Below, one piece after another: positions 34,332 through 39,787 of a DNA stretch of 64,000 nt. A model generated the notes under the pieces. That model was not told the origin of the DNA. It saw only the letters and a list, made by a program, of their open reading frames with translations, and did no database searches. The stretch is from an uncultured Veillonellaceae bacterium (GTDB lineage: Bacteria; Bacillota; Negativicutes; UBA1444). The number at the start of each line of letters is the position of its first letter. Position 1 is the first letter of the stretch. Position numbers and translations under genes: made by a program. The stretch lies in contig CAZFSM010000012.1 of the NCBI GenBank assembly GCA_964521625.1, positions 1,310-65,309 on the forward strand. Direction: 5' to 3'.

Positions 34332-34368
34332 TGCGTTTTCCTCCCTTAGTGTGATGTTTTTTTATTTG

Positions 34369-34395
34369 TTAGCACTCACATCATTCGAGTGCTAA
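34369..34395 (-). promoter_or_regulatory. CIRCE operator (HrcA binding site) upstream of groES
   Basis: TTAGCACTC-N9-GAGTGCTAA is a perfect match to the CIRCE inverted repeat, located between the promoter and the groES Shine-Dalgarno sequence. Confidence 0.85.
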
Positions 34396-34405
34396 CTCCT
34401 TTCCT

Positions 34406-34434
34406 ATCATACTCAATCTACATAAAAAAATCAA
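34406..34434 (-). promoter_or_regulatory. SigA-type promoter of groESL
   Basis: On the minus strand TTGATT-N17-TATGAT, immediately upstream of CIRCE. Confidence 0.5.
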
Positions 34435-34467
34435 GAGCCCCTGAACAAACTTTTTCAGGAGCTCTTG
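34422..34467 (-). terminator. intrinsic terminator after the acyltransferase gene
   Basis: CAAGAGC...GCTCTTG hairpin followed on the minus strand by ATTTTTTTAT. Confidence 0.5.
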
Positions 34468-34477
34468 CCTAAATGTA

Positions 34478-34994: not shown

Positions 34995-35579
34995 CTAGCG
35001 TGTTTTCTTTTTTGATGCGTCGATAATGGCTTCCGCCACCTCGCGGATTGATTTGCGTTTAGCCATGCTATATTGCTGGATGCGGCGGAATGCTTCCTGT
35101 TCGCTCAGGTTGTACGCATCCATCAGCAGGCCTTTGGCCCGGTCAAGAATTTTACGGGTTTCCAATGAATTACGCAAGTCGAGCAGCTCCTGCTCAATTT
35201 CCATGTATTCTTTAAATCGTGACAGAGCAATCTCCATCGCCGGGAACAAGTTGCTTTCCTTCACCGGTTTGACCAGATAAGCCAAAACACCAGAATCCTT
35301 GGCTTTCTCCACAATTTCTTTCTGACTATATGCGGTAAGCAGCAGCACCGGCGCCAACTTTTCATTGGAAATCATTTTGGCTGCCGCTATCCCGTCCATC
35401 TCCGGCATCTTGATATCCATGATCACCAGATCCGGTTTCAATTTCCGCGTCAATTCGACAGCTTTGAGTCCGTCCGCCGCTTCGCCGATGACTTCATGGC
35501 CGGCTTCTTCCAACAGTTCTTTCAAATCCATCCGAATAATCGATTCATTGTCGGCAATCAGTATTCGCAAGCTGTCCAT
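34995..35579 (-). CDS. response regulator with a REC domain and an ANTAR RNA-binding output domain (PdtaR/AmiR/EutV-like)
   Basis: Receiver domain with the phospho-acceptor Asp in DLVIMDIKMPEMDG, and a C-terminal ANTAR helix (RKILDRAKGLLMDAYNLSEQEAFRRIQQYSMAKRKSIREVAEAII). Confidence 0.85.
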   Translation of the reverse strand: MDSLRILIADNESIIRMDLKELLEEAGHEVIGEAADGLKAVELTRKLKPDLVIMDIKMPEMDGIAAAKMISNEKLAPVLLLTAYSQKEIVEKAKDSGVLAYLVKPVKESNLFPAMEIALSRFKEYMEIEQELLDLRNSLETRKILDRAKGLLMDAYNLSEQEAFRRIQQYSMAKRKSIREVAEAIIDASKKKTR

Positions 35580-35593
35580 TGTCTTTCTCCCTC

Positions 35594-37021
35594 CTAAGTG
35601 CGGGGTATAGTAATCATCGCATGAGTTCCGCCGCTGCTAAACAGTTCAAAGGTTCCGCCCAGATCGGTCTCCACCAGGGTCCGCACAATCTGGATCCCCA
35701 AACTCTTGGTTTTGGCCCGGTCAAACCCAACCGGCAAACCAATGCCGTTGTCATATATCTCCAGACGATACGCCGTCTCGGATTCAACTGACAATCGCAA
35801 TCCTATAATACCACTGCTGCGGCCAATAAAGCCATGCTCAATCGCATTTTGCACCAGTTCATTCACCACCAGCGCTAGGCTGCTGGCCCGTTCCGACGGC
35901 AAAATCACCGGTTCCGACTCAAAAATCTTTTCAATGGCAAAACCTGGTTCGATCATGCTCTGAATCACCAGATCGAAAATGTTGCGAGCAACTTCCGCCA
36001 CATCAATCACTTCTTCATCCTGCTGCGATAAAAACTCATGCACCAACGAAATGCTCAGAATCCGGTTGACGCTTTCCCGCAAGGCCGCCTTAACTTCCGG
36101 CGACTCACTGCGGCGGGCCTGCAGGCGAAGTAAGCTGGCGATGGTCTGAAGATTATTCTTGACCCGGTGATGAATCTCTTGAATTACAGCCGATTTAACC
36201 AGCAATTCTTTTTCTTTTTTGCGCAGCTGTGTGACATCAGCCACAAACAGCAGCATCCGCAAAGTTTTTCCTGCCTGCACGACAGGTACGGCTTTTTCCG
36301 ACAGGACCAGACCAGCGACTTCCACTTCCATTTCCTGTGGCTGGCCGGTAATCGCCGCTTTTTGCGCCAAGCGGAACGACAGGGCTCGTTCATGCACCCG
36401 GCGCCCAAGCAGGCGTCCCACGCCAAGTACCCGATAAATCCCTGCCGCTGCCGCGTTGGCATAAATGATTTGGCCCCGTTCATTGACGACCAGAATGCCG
36501 TCCTGCGAAAACAACGGGCGATACACTGATTTTTTCTGTGGATCAAAGTCAGAGATCAGTAGCATATAAACCGTTTCCAGTAAAATCTGATGATCGGCGC
36601 CGGTATCTTCTCCGCTTAGTTCAAAGCTCAGCACGGCCATTATTTTACCTTTTGGCGTCTTCACCGGGAATGTTTCCATAAACAACGGTTCCATCCCCAG
36701 AGCCCATTCCCTTTGCCCGGTAATTCTGTCGCCGGTTTCCAGCGTCTTCCACACCAACGGTTCTTCCGCAGCAGCAAAAGTCGCGCCATCCAGACCGGAA
36801 CGTTGCAAGGAAAGACTGTTTCGCGAATGAGCCTGACCAATCAGGGCAACTTTCTTCGACCGACCCACCCGAACATATAAGCTGACCTGGGCATGAGAAA
36901 TATCACCGGCCAATTCGAGCCGATCATGTATTTTTTCCAGCAAATCAACTTCTGTGGCCGAGAATTTGGCTAACAATTGCAGATGTACATCCAGCATGGT
37001 CATAGTATCGGCAGTTCGCAC
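35594..37021 (-). CDS. cytoplasmic sensor histidine kinase, GAF-PAS-HisKA_2-HATPase (PdtaS-like)
   Basis: 475 aa with no TM helices. H-box HHRVKNNLQTIASLLRLQ (HisKA_2 / HWE type) and ATPase G-boxes (YDNGIGLP, GIQIV). It lies immediately upstream of the ANTAR regulator. Confidence 0.8.
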   Translation of the reverse strand: MRTADTMTMLDVHLQLLAKFSATEVDLLEKIHDRLELAGDISHAQVSLYVRVGRSKKVALIGQAHSRNSLSLQRSGLDGATFAAAEEPLVWKTLETGDRITGQREWALGMEPLFMETFPVKTPKGKIMAVLSFELSGEDTGADHQILLETVYMLLISDFDPQKKSVYRPLFSQDGILVVNERGQIIYANAAAAGIYRVLGVGRLLGRRVHERALSFRLAQKAAITGQPQEMEVEVAGLVLSEKAVPVVQAGKTLRMLLFVADVTQLRKKEKELLVKSAVIQEIHHRVKNNLQTIASLLRLQARRSESPEVKAALRESVNRILSISLVHEFLSQQDEEVIDVAEVARNIFDLVIQSMIEPGFAIEKIFESEPVILPSERASSLALVVNELVQNAIEHGFIGRSSGIIGLRLSVESETAYRLEIYDNGIGLPVGFDRAKTKSLGIQIVRTLVETDLGGTFELFSSGGTHAMITIPRT

Positions 37022-37047
37022 TCCTCAAATAAATTTCTTTCCACGGT

Positions 37048-37151
37048 TTATCCCTGAGTTATCCACAGTATCAACAAGTTTATCCACAGGGGAAGTCGCC
37101 TGTTTTGTTGGCTTTAAAACGTCCCTGCATAGAGTATCCACATTATCCTAT
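37048..37151 (+). promoter_or_regulatory. cluster of five DnaA boxes
   Basis: Two perfect TTATCCACA 9-mers at 37059-37067 and 37080-37088, 21 bp apart, flanked by TTATCCCTG (37048), GTATCCACA (37134) and TTATCCTAT (37143), all in one orientation. They lie in the intergenic region upstream of the PdtaS-like kinase and downstream of tsaD. Confidence 0.6.
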
Positions 37152-38170
37152 TAAGGTTTTCCACCGAGCGGCAGACTGGGAATTGCATTCAAGCTCAGGT
37201 CGGCAATGTCTCCGGCTTGCAATTGGTAATACGCCCGGCAGCCTATCATGGCGGCGTTGTCCGTACATAAAATCGTGTCTGGGCAATACAGGCGAACCCC
37301 CGCTAACTGGCAGCGCCGGTCAAGCTCTGTACGCAGGGATCCATTGGCCGCGACGCCGCCAGATAACACCAGCGATGAAACTTCACAATGGCGTACCGCC
37401 TGTAACGCCTTTTCCGCCAGGATATCCACAACAGCAGCTTGAAAAGACGCCGCCACATCTGCCGCAACCACAGTTTCATTTCGCTGCGAAGCCGTGTGCA
37501 TCGTATTGATCACCGCCGACTTCAGACCACTGAAACTGAATTCAAAGGTTCCATCACCGGAAAAAGAACGGGGAAACCGAATAGCCGCCGGATTTCCCGT
37601 TTTCGCCAAGGCTTCCACCTGTGGACCACCCGGATACGGCAATCCCAGCACCCGCGCGACTTTGTCGAAGGCTTCACCGGCCGCATCATCTCTGGTTTGG
37701 CCCAATAGCTGAAACGACGAATAGTCCCGCACATGAACCAGCGATGTATGACCGCCGGAAACAATCAACGCGACAAACGGCGGGACAAGTTCCGGATGAG
37801 TGAGTAGCGGCGCGAACATGTGGCCTTCCAGATGATGCACGCCAATTAAGGGAATTGCGGCTGAAAACGCCAGTGCCTTGGCAGCTGCGACACCGACCAG
37901 CAGTGCGCCGACCAGTCCCGGTCCGAAGGTTACGCCGATTGCGTCAAGATCGGCTAATCCGACCCCTGCCAGCGACAACGCCTGATCAATCACCGGAATG
38001 ACATCTTCAACATGACGCCTGGAAGCCAATTCCGGCACAACTCCGCCGTATTTCTGATGAACCGGAATCTGCGAAGCAATCACATTGGACAATATTTTAC
38101 GGCCATCTGCAATCACAGCGGCCGAGGTTTCATCACAACTGGTCTCAAGTCCGAGCAGCAAAACGCTCAT
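37151..38170 (-). CDS. tsaD: tRNA N6-adenosine threonylcarbamoyltransferase
   Basis: 339 aa Kae1/TsaD family (LGLETSCDETSAAV..., His-His metal site). Confidence 0.95.
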   Translation of the reverse strand: MSVLLLGLETSCDETSAAVIADGRKILSNVIASQIPVHQKYGGVVPELASRRHVEDVIPVIDQALSLAGVGLADLDAIGVTFGPGLVGALLVGVAAAKALAFSAAIPLIGVHHLEGHMFAPLLTHPELVPPFVALIVSGGHTSLVHVRDYSSFQLLGQTRDDAAGEAFDKVARVLGLPYPGGPQVEALAKTGNPAAIRFPRSFSGDGTFEFSFSGLKSAVINTMHTASQRNETVVAADVAASFQAAVVDILAEKALQAVRHCEVSSLVLSGGVAANGSLRTELDRRCQLAGVRLYCPDTILCTDNAAMIGCRAYYQLQAGDIADLSLNAIPSLPLGGKP

Positions 38171-38619
38171 AACTGTTCACGCCACAAAATCAGCGCGTCC
38201 TCCTTGGTTTCAGAATAGTAATTCTTGCGGATGCCGGCCGAAACAAACCCCAGCTGATGGTACAGCGCCCGAGCCGCCTCGTTGGAAACGCGGACTTCCA
38301 GCGTCATCGATTCCATGCCTTCGTCGCGGGCCATGTCCATCAAGGCTTCCATGAGAAGCCTACCGATTCCTTCCTGTCGCCGATTGCCGCGAACTGCTAC
38401 ATTGGTCACGTGCGCCTCATTGATCACCAACCAGGTCCCGGCATAGCCAACAACAGCATCTCCGTCCAGCGCAACCAAATAGCGAGCCAATCGGTTCTGG
38501 GCCAATTCGTCCTCAAAAGCCGAACGTGACCAGGGGGTGGGAAATGAATCTTGTTCGACAATCATCACCGCATCCAGATCCTCTACCGTCATCGTTCGCA
38601 CGATGAACCGGCTGCTCAT
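38167..38619 (-). CDS. rimI: ribosomal-protein-alanine N-acetyltransferase
   Basis: GNAT fold. The start MSSRFIVRTM at 38619 overlaps the tsaB stop as ATGA; the track ORF begins 9 codons upstream. Confidence 0.85.
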   Translation of the reverse strand: MSSRFIVRTMTVEDLDAVMIVEQDSFPTPWSRSAFEDELAQNRLARYLVALDGDAVVGYAGTWLVINEAHVTNVAVRGNRRQEGIGRLLMEALMDMARDEGMESMTLEVRVSNEAARALYHQLGFVSAGIRKNYYSETKEDALILWREQL

Positions 38620-39341
38620 GCCTGCTCCCGGCAGCGGCGTTCCCACAGCTCTTCCGCTTCGGCCCGTCTGACATACAAGGGATTCAATTCCACCGGCGGC
38701 ATCGCCAATCCCTGTTGCCAGCGGGCAAAACCCAACATGCCGACCGCGGCTGCCCGAGGAGTCAGCGATTGCTCAGGCGCCGCAATGATCCGGCTGTTCG
38801 CAGCAGCTATAAGTTCTGCATATTCACGTACCGATTCACCGACCACCATTACCGGTCCCGCCAGGTCCGTCAATTCGGCAAACGCCTGTTCTGCCGCAAC
38901 AATCCGCACCGGCCAAACTTCTTGCAGCGCTCCGTCCTGCCAGCGGTAGGTCGCCTGGTACACGCGCCCTTTCTGTGCGTCCAGCATAGCCGAAACCCAG
39001 CCGTCAGCGCACGGACAACCATAAGCCAGTGCCTCCAGCGTGGGCACGCCGACGATCTTTTTTCTCCAGGCATAGGCCAGTGTTTTAGCCGTAGTCAGAC
39101 CGATCCGCAGGCCGGTGAACGAGCCGGGACCAATACTAACAGCCAGTCCCTCAACTTCTGACGGCAGTACGCCGGCAAGCAAAAACAGCCGCTCAATTTG
39201 CGGCATCAAGCGTTCTGAATGCGTGTTGCCTGTTTGTACATTAATTTCTGCCAACACCCTGCCGGCCTTGACCAAGGCAGCGCCACAAACCGGCGTTGCG
39301 GTTTCTATCGCTAAAATCAGCTTGGTTCGCTCCCTTCCCAC
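38616..39341 (-). CDS. tsaB: tRNA threonylcarbamoyladenosine biosynthesis protein TsaB (YeaZ)
   Basis: ILAIETATPVCGAALV... inactive Kae1 paralogue. The track start is a GTG at 39341. An alternative CTG start at 39320 overlaps the tsaE stop as CTGA and is preceded by GGGAAGGGAG. Confidence 0.85.
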   Translation of the reverse strand: MGRERTKLILAIETATPVCGAALVKAGRVLAEINVQTGNTHSERLMPQIERLFLLAGVLPSEVEGLAVSIGPGSFTGLRIGLTTAKTLAYAWRKKIVGVPTLEALAYGCPCADGWVSAMLDAQKGRVYQATYRWQDGALQEVWPVRIVAAEQAFAELTDLAGPVMVVGESVREYAELIAAANSRIIAAPEQSLTPRAAAVGMLGFARWQQGLAMPPVELNPLYVRRAEAEELWERRCREQA

Positions 39342-39787
39342 CGCTTGGAAAAACGGCGACCATGAGGCTCAACCTGGATGGTCCGCTCTGTCAGGCCAGC
39401 GCCAGGTCCGATGACAACTTTCAGGTATTCATCCGGCATCTCCGTCGCAAACAGATCAGGCCATTCCACCAGCGCCAGCCCGCCGCCGCCGACAAACTCG
39501 TCGAAACCGATTTCATACAGTTCCTCCGCACGGGTCAAGCGATACAGGTCAAAATGATATACAGGGATTCGGCCCTGATAAAGATTCAGCAATGCAAAGG
39601 TGGGGCTGGTTACCGGTTCAGTTACGCCGAATCCTTCAGCCATGCCTTTGACAAACTCCGTTTTGCCTGCGCCGAGATTTCCCTGCAACAGGACGACATC
39701 GCCGGCTTGTAACCGCTCACTCAATTTTCGGGCAAACGTCCGCGTAGCCTCTGGCGACGCACTGGAATAGATCTGCAAAACAGGCAC
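39317..39787 (-). CDS. tsaE: tRNA threonylcarbamoyladenosine biosynthesis ATPase TsaE (YjeE)
   Basis: Walker A motif GNLGAGKT. Confidence 0.9.
   Translation of the reverse strand: MPVLQIYSSASPEATRTFARKLSERLQAGDVVLLQGNLGAGKTEFVKGMAEGFGVTEPVTSPTFALLNLYQGRIPVYHFDLYRLTRAEELYEIGFDEFVGGGGLALVEWPDLFATEMPDEYLKVVIGPGAGLTERTIQVEPHGRRFSKRWEGSEPS

Follow-up and report, generated by a model that had tools for sequence, protein, structure and literature searches.

The window analysed here, a 64,000-nucleotide (64-kb) stretch of contig CAZFSM010000012.1 from an uncultured Veillonellaceae bacterium, carries an array of DnaA-box-like 9-mers between the t6A tRNA-modification gene tsaD and a gene for a PdtaS-like histidine kinase. 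The surrounding genes all lie on the - strand and, by Pfam assignment, run in the order tsaE, tsaB, rimI, tsaD, array, PdtaS-like kinase (pdtaS), PdtaR-like ANTAR regulator (pdtaR), hexapeptide transferase, groES and groEL. We scored each 9-mer against the DnaA-box consensus TTATCCACA on the + strand and located seven box-like 9-mers at 37045–37165, all in a single orientation, reading TGTGGATAA in the direction of the genes (boxes A to G, Table 1). Boxes A and C match the consensus perfectly; their starts are 21 bp apart, and no other perfect copy occurs in the window. Boxes A to D form a head-to-tail core that alternates strong-weak-strong-weak, the starts being separated, in gene direction, by 12, 9 and 11 bp. 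An earlier note on this DNA had described two perfect boxes exactly 21 bp apart and a common orientation for all boxes, both of which hold. Of the three flanking boxes that it counted as 7–8/9 matches, Box E is indeed an 8/9 match, whereas boxes D and F reach only 6/9 each, and the two 7/9 boxes (B and G) had been overlooked.

The array is real and non-random. We calculated a cluster score per 120 bp (perfect box 3, one mismatch 2, two mismatches 1), by which the array scores 10 and the second-best place in the 64 kb scores 4, making it the only cluster in the window. Over 300 first-order Markov simulations, the top score averaged 3.9 with a maximum of 7, and a score of 10 was reached in none (0/300). 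It is the clustering that stands out: one-mismatch boxes are not enriched window-wide (14 observed versus 11.5 expected); two perfect copies turn up in 8 of 100 shuffles. The coding sequence of tsaD itself holds a further 8/9 box in the same orientation (ATATCCACA, 37422–37430), ∼270 bp away from the stop codon.

We compared the locus with its relatives by assembling 90 loci, 80 of them around TsaD relatives (one genome per species) and 10 obtained via PdtaS homologues, and by computing box statistics over 89 of these, taking the 320 bp that follow the stop codon of tsaD as the post-tsaD zone. Box density was 3.59 per kb in this zone versus 0.34 per kb elsewhere, and 89 of the 99 boxes within it read in the direction of tsaD. 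Three or more boxes occupied the zone in 18/89 loci versus 1/2401 background windows, and that lone background window is a tsaD-linked cluster itself, at +373 bp in Alkaliphilus peptidifermentans. Cluster scores were bimodal, with 22–23 loci at 7–16 and the others at 6 or below, the background maximum also being 6. A cluster thus follows tsaD in 22–23 of the 90 loci, among them members of the Bacilli (Brevibacillus, two species, and Kroppenstedtia), the Clostridia (Alkaliphilus, a metagenome-assembled genome (MAG) of the Carboxydocellales and several other MAGs) and the Negativicutes (Sporolituus, Acetonema, Sporomusa, Anaeroselena and the window's own clade). Outside the post-tsaD zone, 9-mers with at most one mismatch in loci L001–L090 are biased 3:1 (208 versus 70) toward TGTGGATAA in the tsaD direction, a bias that may reflect strand composition or codon usage of co-oriented genes.

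The gene that follows the cluster varies with lineage and is of eight or more kinds: a convergent ABC-F gene (642 aa) in Brevibacillus fulvus, ydiF-like as in Bacillus subtilis, and elsewhere a gene for a subtilase, MetRS, SLT, VanZ, an unknown protein, a radical-SAM protein or PdtaS. Where a radical-SAM/PDZ gene intervenes between tsaD and pdtaS, as in Acetonema longum (L088) and the related MAG L086, the boxes lie directly after tsaD and none precede pdtaS. In Sporomusa acidovorans and Anaeroselena agilis, too, the cluster sits close against the tsaD stop codon, with pdtaS more than 200 bp further downstream. At least 11 loci carry a cluster without pdtaS, and conversely five Negativicutes loci have tsaD followed by pdtaS and no cluster; a tsaD-pdtaS-pdtaR order without the cluster is seen in Pelosinus, Veillonella, Anaerovibrio and Selenomonas. 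Given the varied downstream genes, the loci with an inserted gene and the box-less tsaD-pdtaS loci, the cluster tracks tsaD and not the ANTAR operon. The earlier note had assigned the cluster to the promoter region of the PdtaS/PdtaR operon and proposed a link between DnaA and ANTAR-mediated anti-termination; instead, the cluster follows the tsaD 3' end whichever gene is next, and the link finds no support as a conserved association. Sporulation was considered as a correlate of cluster presence and was discarded on account of Pelosinus, which we take to be a spore-former and which has no cluster.

Within the clade, the array is the part of the spacer that is conserved. An alignment of six spacer sequences, from the window and five clade relatives whose PdtaS is 77–88% identical, has a mean column identity of 56% and a sole invariant block, CTGTGGATAA..TGTTGAT..TGTGGA.AA..C..GGATAA, which corresponds to window positions 37048–37089 and hence to the four-box core. 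This indicates that the core is under purifying selection within the clade. Because boxes B (7/9) and D (6/9) fall within the invariant block, they too are constrained despite their poor match to the consensus: the TGTTGAT core of Box B and the GGATAA portion of Box D are invariant, and other Negativicutes have a GGGGATAA element at the position of Box D. Of the outlying boxes, E has a box-like TGTGGA(A/C) element at its place in L082, L084 and L086–L090, and G has a counterpart in L082 and L084, GGTGGAAAA or GGTGGATAA at the end of tsaD, which is, however, coding sequence.

Box B is also the middle member of a recurring arrangement. A head-to-tail triple of boxes spaced 12 + 9 bp on the tsaD strand is present in 16 loci including the window, from Bacilli, Clostridia and Negativicutes, whereas every other pair of spacings between 9 and 15 bp occurs in at most 4 loci, and none is seen on the opposite strand. 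We searched metagenomes with the pattern TGTGGATAA-N3-TGTKGAT-N2-TGTGGATAA and obtained 120 matches (L091–L210, redundancy between samples retained). Only 11 of the 120 follow tsaD, and the triple was therefore rejected as a tsaD-specific signature; the 12+9 spacing is rather a general design of strong DnaA clusters, which in turn supports DnaA as the binding protein. For ten of the 120 the upstream gene is jag, and in most of these mnmG (gidA) comes further along; another B. subtilis cluster is known from that position. Other matches lie by a convergent Cys/Met PLP-enzyme gene (27), after a MATE transporter gene (15) or by a cytidylate-kinase-like gene (12). Most matches occur in contexts not known as DnaA sites, many of them from gut Firmicutes, and these look like further uncharacterised DnaA-box clusters.

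The spacer offers little else that is recognizable. PdtaS homologues are mostly 469 aa long and their start codons line up in the spacer alignment; pdtaS thus most likely starts at ATG 37003 (469 aa) rather than at GTG 37021, which would make the tsaD-pdtaS spacer 147 bp. A scan of 36500–37700 found no sigma-70-like promoter and, on the gene strand, no terminator in the spacer, the lone terminator-like hairpin being on the wrong strand. RNA folding of the spacer gave nothing beyond shuffled controls (z = +0.95), which leaves a riboswitch, leader or ANTAR-target reading unsupported. The claim of the earlier note that the boxes lie in a promoter region is therefore not upheld by any sigma-70-like promoter, terminator or stable RNA structure found in the spacer. 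As a candidate sigma-A promoter inside the array, TTGATA-N18-TAACTT fits four clade members; the window and L081 are without the final T of the -10 element, and we regard the candidate as unconvincing. An Rfam scan of the entire window at gathering thresholds returned 0 matches, and a tRNA scan found none.

The array locus does not have the attributes of a replication origin (AT-rich element, dnaA/dnaN, GC-skew switch). Neither dnaA nor dnaN is present in the 64-kb window, where we found no DnaA motif and, among the large open reading frames scanned against Pfam, no Bac_DnaA match; GC skew is negative in 32/32 bins with no switch; and no AT-rich tract that could serve as an unwinding element flanks the array. 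Within the window, the earlier statement that no dnaA or oriC lies nearby is accordingly correct. The gene content of the window (alr, acpS, an RsbU-like phosphatase, tsaEBD, groESL, guaA and the pur operon) presumably matches the gcp-groESL-guaA-pur region of B. subtilis in order. The PdtaS homologues place the organism in an uncultured Negativicutes clade, with identities of 96–77% to metagenomic relatives and then of ∼58% to Sporolituus, Acetonema, Lucifera and Sporomusa.

Table 1. Coordinates of the boxes and genes at the tsaD-pdtaS locus of the window, and of features in related loci (L numbers, own coordinates).
Feature	Position	Strand	Description
Box A	37080..37088	+	TTATCCACA, 9/9; TGTGGATAA in gene direction; first box of the core array; unchanged across six clade sequences
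Box B	37068..37076	+	GTATCAACA, 7/9; TGTTGATAC in gene direction; 12 bp after Box A, abuts Box C
Box C	37059..37067	+	TTATCCACA, 9/9; 9 bp after Box B in gene direction
Box D	37048..37056	+	TTATCCCTG, 6/9 only; CAGGGATAA in gene direction; weak by consensus
Spacer stretch between Box E and core array	37089..37133		45 bp; no conserved columns in the alignment; no stable RNA fold or terminator
Box E	37134..37142	+	GTATCCACA, 8/9; 9 bp past the tsaD stop codon in gene direction
Box F	37143..37151	+	TTATCCTAT, 6/9; overlaps the final base of the tsaD stop codon; doubtful, not conserved in the alignment
Box G	37157..37165	+	TTTTCCACC, 7/9; within the last tsaD codons
tsaD (gcp)	37151..38170	-	t6A tRNA-modification enzyme; Pfam TsaD, E = 3e-96; stop codon 37153-37151
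tsaE, tsaB, rimI	38167..39787	-	upstream of tsaD, same orientation; Pfam TsaE, TsaD-fold (TsaB), GNAT
pdtaS	35594..37003	-	PdtaS-like GAF-PAS histidine kinase; Pfam GAF_PdtaS, PAS_4, HisKA_2, HATPase_c
pdtaR	34995..35579	-	PdtaR-like response regulator with ANTAR domain; Pfam Response_reg, ANTAR
Sigma-H-like motif	L001 7066, L005 7223, L086 2956, L087 2929, L088 2940, L089 2830, L090 2942		approximate positions
Radical-SAM/PDZ gene insertion	L086 1717-2940; L088 1610-2938		Acetonema longum and related MAG

DnaA-box clusters (DBCs) outside oriC have been characterized in B. subtilis, where chromatin affinity precipitation on chip (ChAP-chip) by Ishikawa et al. in 2007 identified eight stable DnaA-binding regions (PMC2533591). 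One of the six non-oriC DBCs, DBC[gcp-ydiF], is DnaA-bound, lies directly after gcp and was already reported in 2007 to be highly conserved in Bacillaceae (PMC2533591); gcp is the old name of tsaD, as ywlC is of tsaC (PMC10221552). The earlier note was thus right to liken the array to a non-oriC DBC, and the array is the positional counterpart of DBC[gcp-ydiF]; the cluster class itself is not new, having been described in that 2007 study (PMC2533591). Smith and Grossman (2015) measured how DnaA bound gcp-ydiF DNA in vitro and reported 10 sites, a Kd of 0.15 µM with ATP-DnaA and, at 55 nM, a 16-fold preference for this form of the protein (PMC4447404). Deletion of all six non-oriC clusters leads to early initiation (Okumura et al. 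2012, PMC3245932), and in a 2026 review the six clusters are still presented in those terms only, B. subtilis being noted there to be without IHF, datA and Hda (PMC13220808).

The window array and DBC[gcp-ydiF] both consist of several tightly packed boxes outside oriC, directly downstream of tsaD, the last gene of the tsaE-tsaB-rimI-tsaD string, with groESL a few kb further on. Bacilli provide a bridge between the two: the Brevibacillus and Kroppenstedtia clusters at the same position share the box orientation of the window, and that of Brevibacillus reuszeri (L067) shares the 12+9 spacing as well. The two sites differ in the number of boxes with at most one mismatch (3 in the window versus 8 in B. 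subtilis), in the A-value, a published predictor of stable binding that is considered below (0.09 versus 0.94), and in the downstream gene, which is the co-directional pdtaS in the window and the convergent ydiF in B. subtilis. Further, the window has no terminator between tsaD and the array, its host is a diderm Firmicute (Negativicutes), and its site is predicted, whereas that of B. subtilis is DnaA-bound. The B. subtilis DBCs at dnaA, sda, ywlC, yydA and jag-thdF (mnmE) resemble the array in having boxes of the same type clustered outside or beside oriC, theirs being stably DnaA-bound, and ywlC is, like tsaD, a t6A gene; the ywlC, yydA, sda and dnaA clusters differ in that they overlap known promoters with measured transcriptional effects. 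No promoter was detected at the window array, and the comparison of loci argues against a conserved tie to the operon downstream of it. The datA locus of Escherichia coli is likewise a non-oriC locus with several DnaA boxes, and it lowers initiation potential (PMC13220808). However, datA acts via IHF-dependent hydrolysis of DnaA-bound ATP, nothing in the window array, in which no search for IHF sites was made, suggests hydrolysis, and the array has no sequence or positional homology to datA.

Taken together, the boxes exist, are non-randomly clustered, are under purifying selection as judged from the alignment, and track tsaD. We are therefore fairly confident in reading the array as a secondary DnaA-box cluster (non-oriC) that adjoins the 3' end of tsaD and is a positional, probably evolutionary, counterpart of DBC[gcp-ydiF], most likely acting as a cooperative binding site for ATP-DnaA. 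Several observations weigh against this interpretation. Homology to the B. subtilis cluster rests on position and on the representatives in the Bacilli, Brevibacillus and Kroppenstedtia. About 75% of the tsaD loci examined have no cluster, including that of Pelosinus, the closest named relative by TsaD, and the cluster is thus dispensable. In B. subtilis, deletion of DBC[gcp-ydiF] by itself has no phenotype and its re-insertion fails to rescue the six-fold deletion (PMC3245932), so that a role in titration is weak even there. The published predictor, which takes four successive boxes, each within one mismatch of TTATNCACA, sets its threshold at A > 0.3, and is empirical and calibrated on B. 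subtilis rather than a definition, gives A = 0.09 for the window, because just three window boxes pass the one-mismatch rule. Values for the nearest relatives are 0.03–0.07 (L082–L085) and 0.59 (L081), and those for 15 more distant tsaD-linked clusters range from 0.38 to 1.67. Judged by its boxes, the window array is an eroded version, which would need boxes with 2–3 mismatches to be filled cooperatively if it is to be stably occupied; giving the weak invariant boxes B and D an affinity of 1 brings A, by arithmetic on the box positions, to 3.75.

Cooperative filling of low-affinity sites from strong anchors is established for E. coli oriC. By a comparable route, DnaA would bind the perfect boxes A and C first, after which ATP-DnaA would cooperatively occupy the weak boxes interleaved with them (B and D), producing a short head-to-tail oligomer over 37048–37088, with the 8/9 Box E beside the tsaD stop codon as an outlying site. 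By analogy with B. subtilis, and with less confidence than we place in the identity of the array, its role could be that of one of several non-oriC sites that jointly buffer free DnaA and restrain replication initiation, no single such site having a visible effect in that species. The adjacency of pdtaS-pdtaR would then reflect Negativicutes gene order rather than a regulatory tie of its own. Little beyond the array is left of the spacer in this clade, and bound DnaA could also dampen transcription from tsaD into pdtaSR, a possible clade-specific side effect.

Such an effect on pdtaSR bears on the alternative that the boxes are a pdtaS-pdtaR operator, through which DnaA would repress or activate the ANTAR system and couple replication status to RNA anti-termination. 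The array is well placed for this, its core ending 44 bp ahead of the pdtaS start codon in the window and 44–70 bp ahead across the window and L081–L085. No terminator was found between tsaD and pdtaS, Box B holds TTGATA, a weak -35-like element that matches 5/6 of the -35 consensus, and in B. subtilis DnaA regulates the cluster-bearing promoters dnaA, sda, ywlC and yydA (PMC2533591). The clade also differs from other Negativicutes in its promoter signals. A motif (AGGAwww-N10-13-RnnGAATw) that resembles what we take to be the sigma-H consensus occurs 57–171 nt upstream of pdtaS in seven Negativicutes loci (background 0.015 per kb), suggesting that a transition-state or sporulation sigma factor may control PdtaS/PdtaR in Sporomusa-like bacteria; it was not found in the window, L081–L085, Veillonella, Selenomonas or Anaerovibrio. 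With this motif lost in the clade, pdtaSR transcription must cross the array or start within or overlapping it. That dependence is, however, a derived state and not the reason for the existence of the cluster, which remains with tsaD when a gene intervenes, occurs without pdtaS, is missing from the five box-less tsaD-pdtaS loci, and in Sporomusa, Anaeroselena, Sporolituus and L005 lies 130–250 bp upstream of pdtaS, ahead of a separate promoter motif. In view of these loci, and with no sigma-70 promoter detected in the spacer, we consider an operator function unlikely. The strict tie to the tsaD stop codon and the fixed orientation across three Bacillota classes would fit with bound DnaA acting on tsaEBD, as a roadblock or terminator substitute or as a link between t6A and replication. 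Three of the six non-oriC DBCs of B. subtilis flank tRNA-modification genes, namely ywlC = tsaC (DnaA-repressed), gcp = tsaD and thdF = mnmE (PMC2533591, PMC10221552), and the window has no intrinsic terminator after tsaD that we could find. By eye, however, a hairpin and T-run terminator stands between tsaD and a tight array in L055, L066, L067 and L086, so that a roadblock is no general requirement; many lineages have lost the cluster; and no measurable expression effect was seen around gcp-ydiF in B. subtilis (PMC2533591). Control of tsaEBD is thus improbable as the reason for which the array is kept. Somewhat more doubtful still is a broader version, according to which the array would be an ancient pan-Bacillota element, fixed in orientation and with 12+9 bp box spacing, kept for DnaA action on t6A genes, forming with DnaA control of tsaC/ywlC and the boxes at mnmE a coupling of replication to translation and, in this clade, gating pdtaSR read-through.

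Conservation alone does not name the binding protein, and tandem boxes resemble oriC sub-regions, which raises the question of whether the repeats are kept because some other regulator binds them or because they are a secondary or relic replication origin. Both are very unlikely, given that the repeats are built on the full consensus of the universal DnaA box and that the same arrangement recurs at another known DnaA site, jag-mnmE; the locus moreover has no adjoining AT-rich unwinding element, GC-skew switch, nearby dnaA or dnaN, or Rfam family match. A functionless chance or compositional cluster of DnaA-box-like 9-mers could draw on the unenriched one-mismatch boxes and on the recurrence of two perfect copies in shuffles. 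Against it, the observed clustering was never attained in the simulations, the four-box core is the sole invariant island of a diverged spacer, and clusters recur at the same position in 22–23 independent loci against a single background window in 2401. These three results effectively refute chance, to which we assign a negligible probability.

What the comparison adds to the secondary DnaA-box cluster known from B. subtilis is modest in extent: a cluster of this position and orientation relative to tsaD reaches past Bacillaceae to Clostridia and Negativicutes, often has the 12+9 spacing and, in the window's clade, is under purifying selection. The wider occurrence and the selection strengthen the case for a real function. 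The loci also supply natural controls, in the form of close relatives with and without the cluster and of genomes with differing downstream genes. For the window, the connection between DnaA and ANTAR is removed as a conserved feature.

Several minor features of the neighborhood were also observed. A perfect CIRCE/HrcA operator (TTAGCACTC-N9-GAGTGCTAA) lies at 34369–34395, upstream of groES, and groESL thus has its own heat-shock-controlled promoter region. A DUF1405 gene directly follows the hexapeptide-transferase gene in L082–L086 and L090 and is itself followed by groES in L082–L086; the window has just a 146-bp spacer at the DUF1405 position (34332–34477), and L081 is without both genes. 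On the other side of tsaD, L086, L089 and L090 have rimI and tsaD separated by a gene for a small acid-soluble spore protein. In Lachnospiraceae (L011–L014, L017, L019–L021, L023–L026, L030 and others), many contigs end 1–2.5 kb downstream of tsaD, which suggests an assembly-breaking repeat such as an rRNA operon, and ∼1.3–2 kb separate rimI from tsaD in these genomes.

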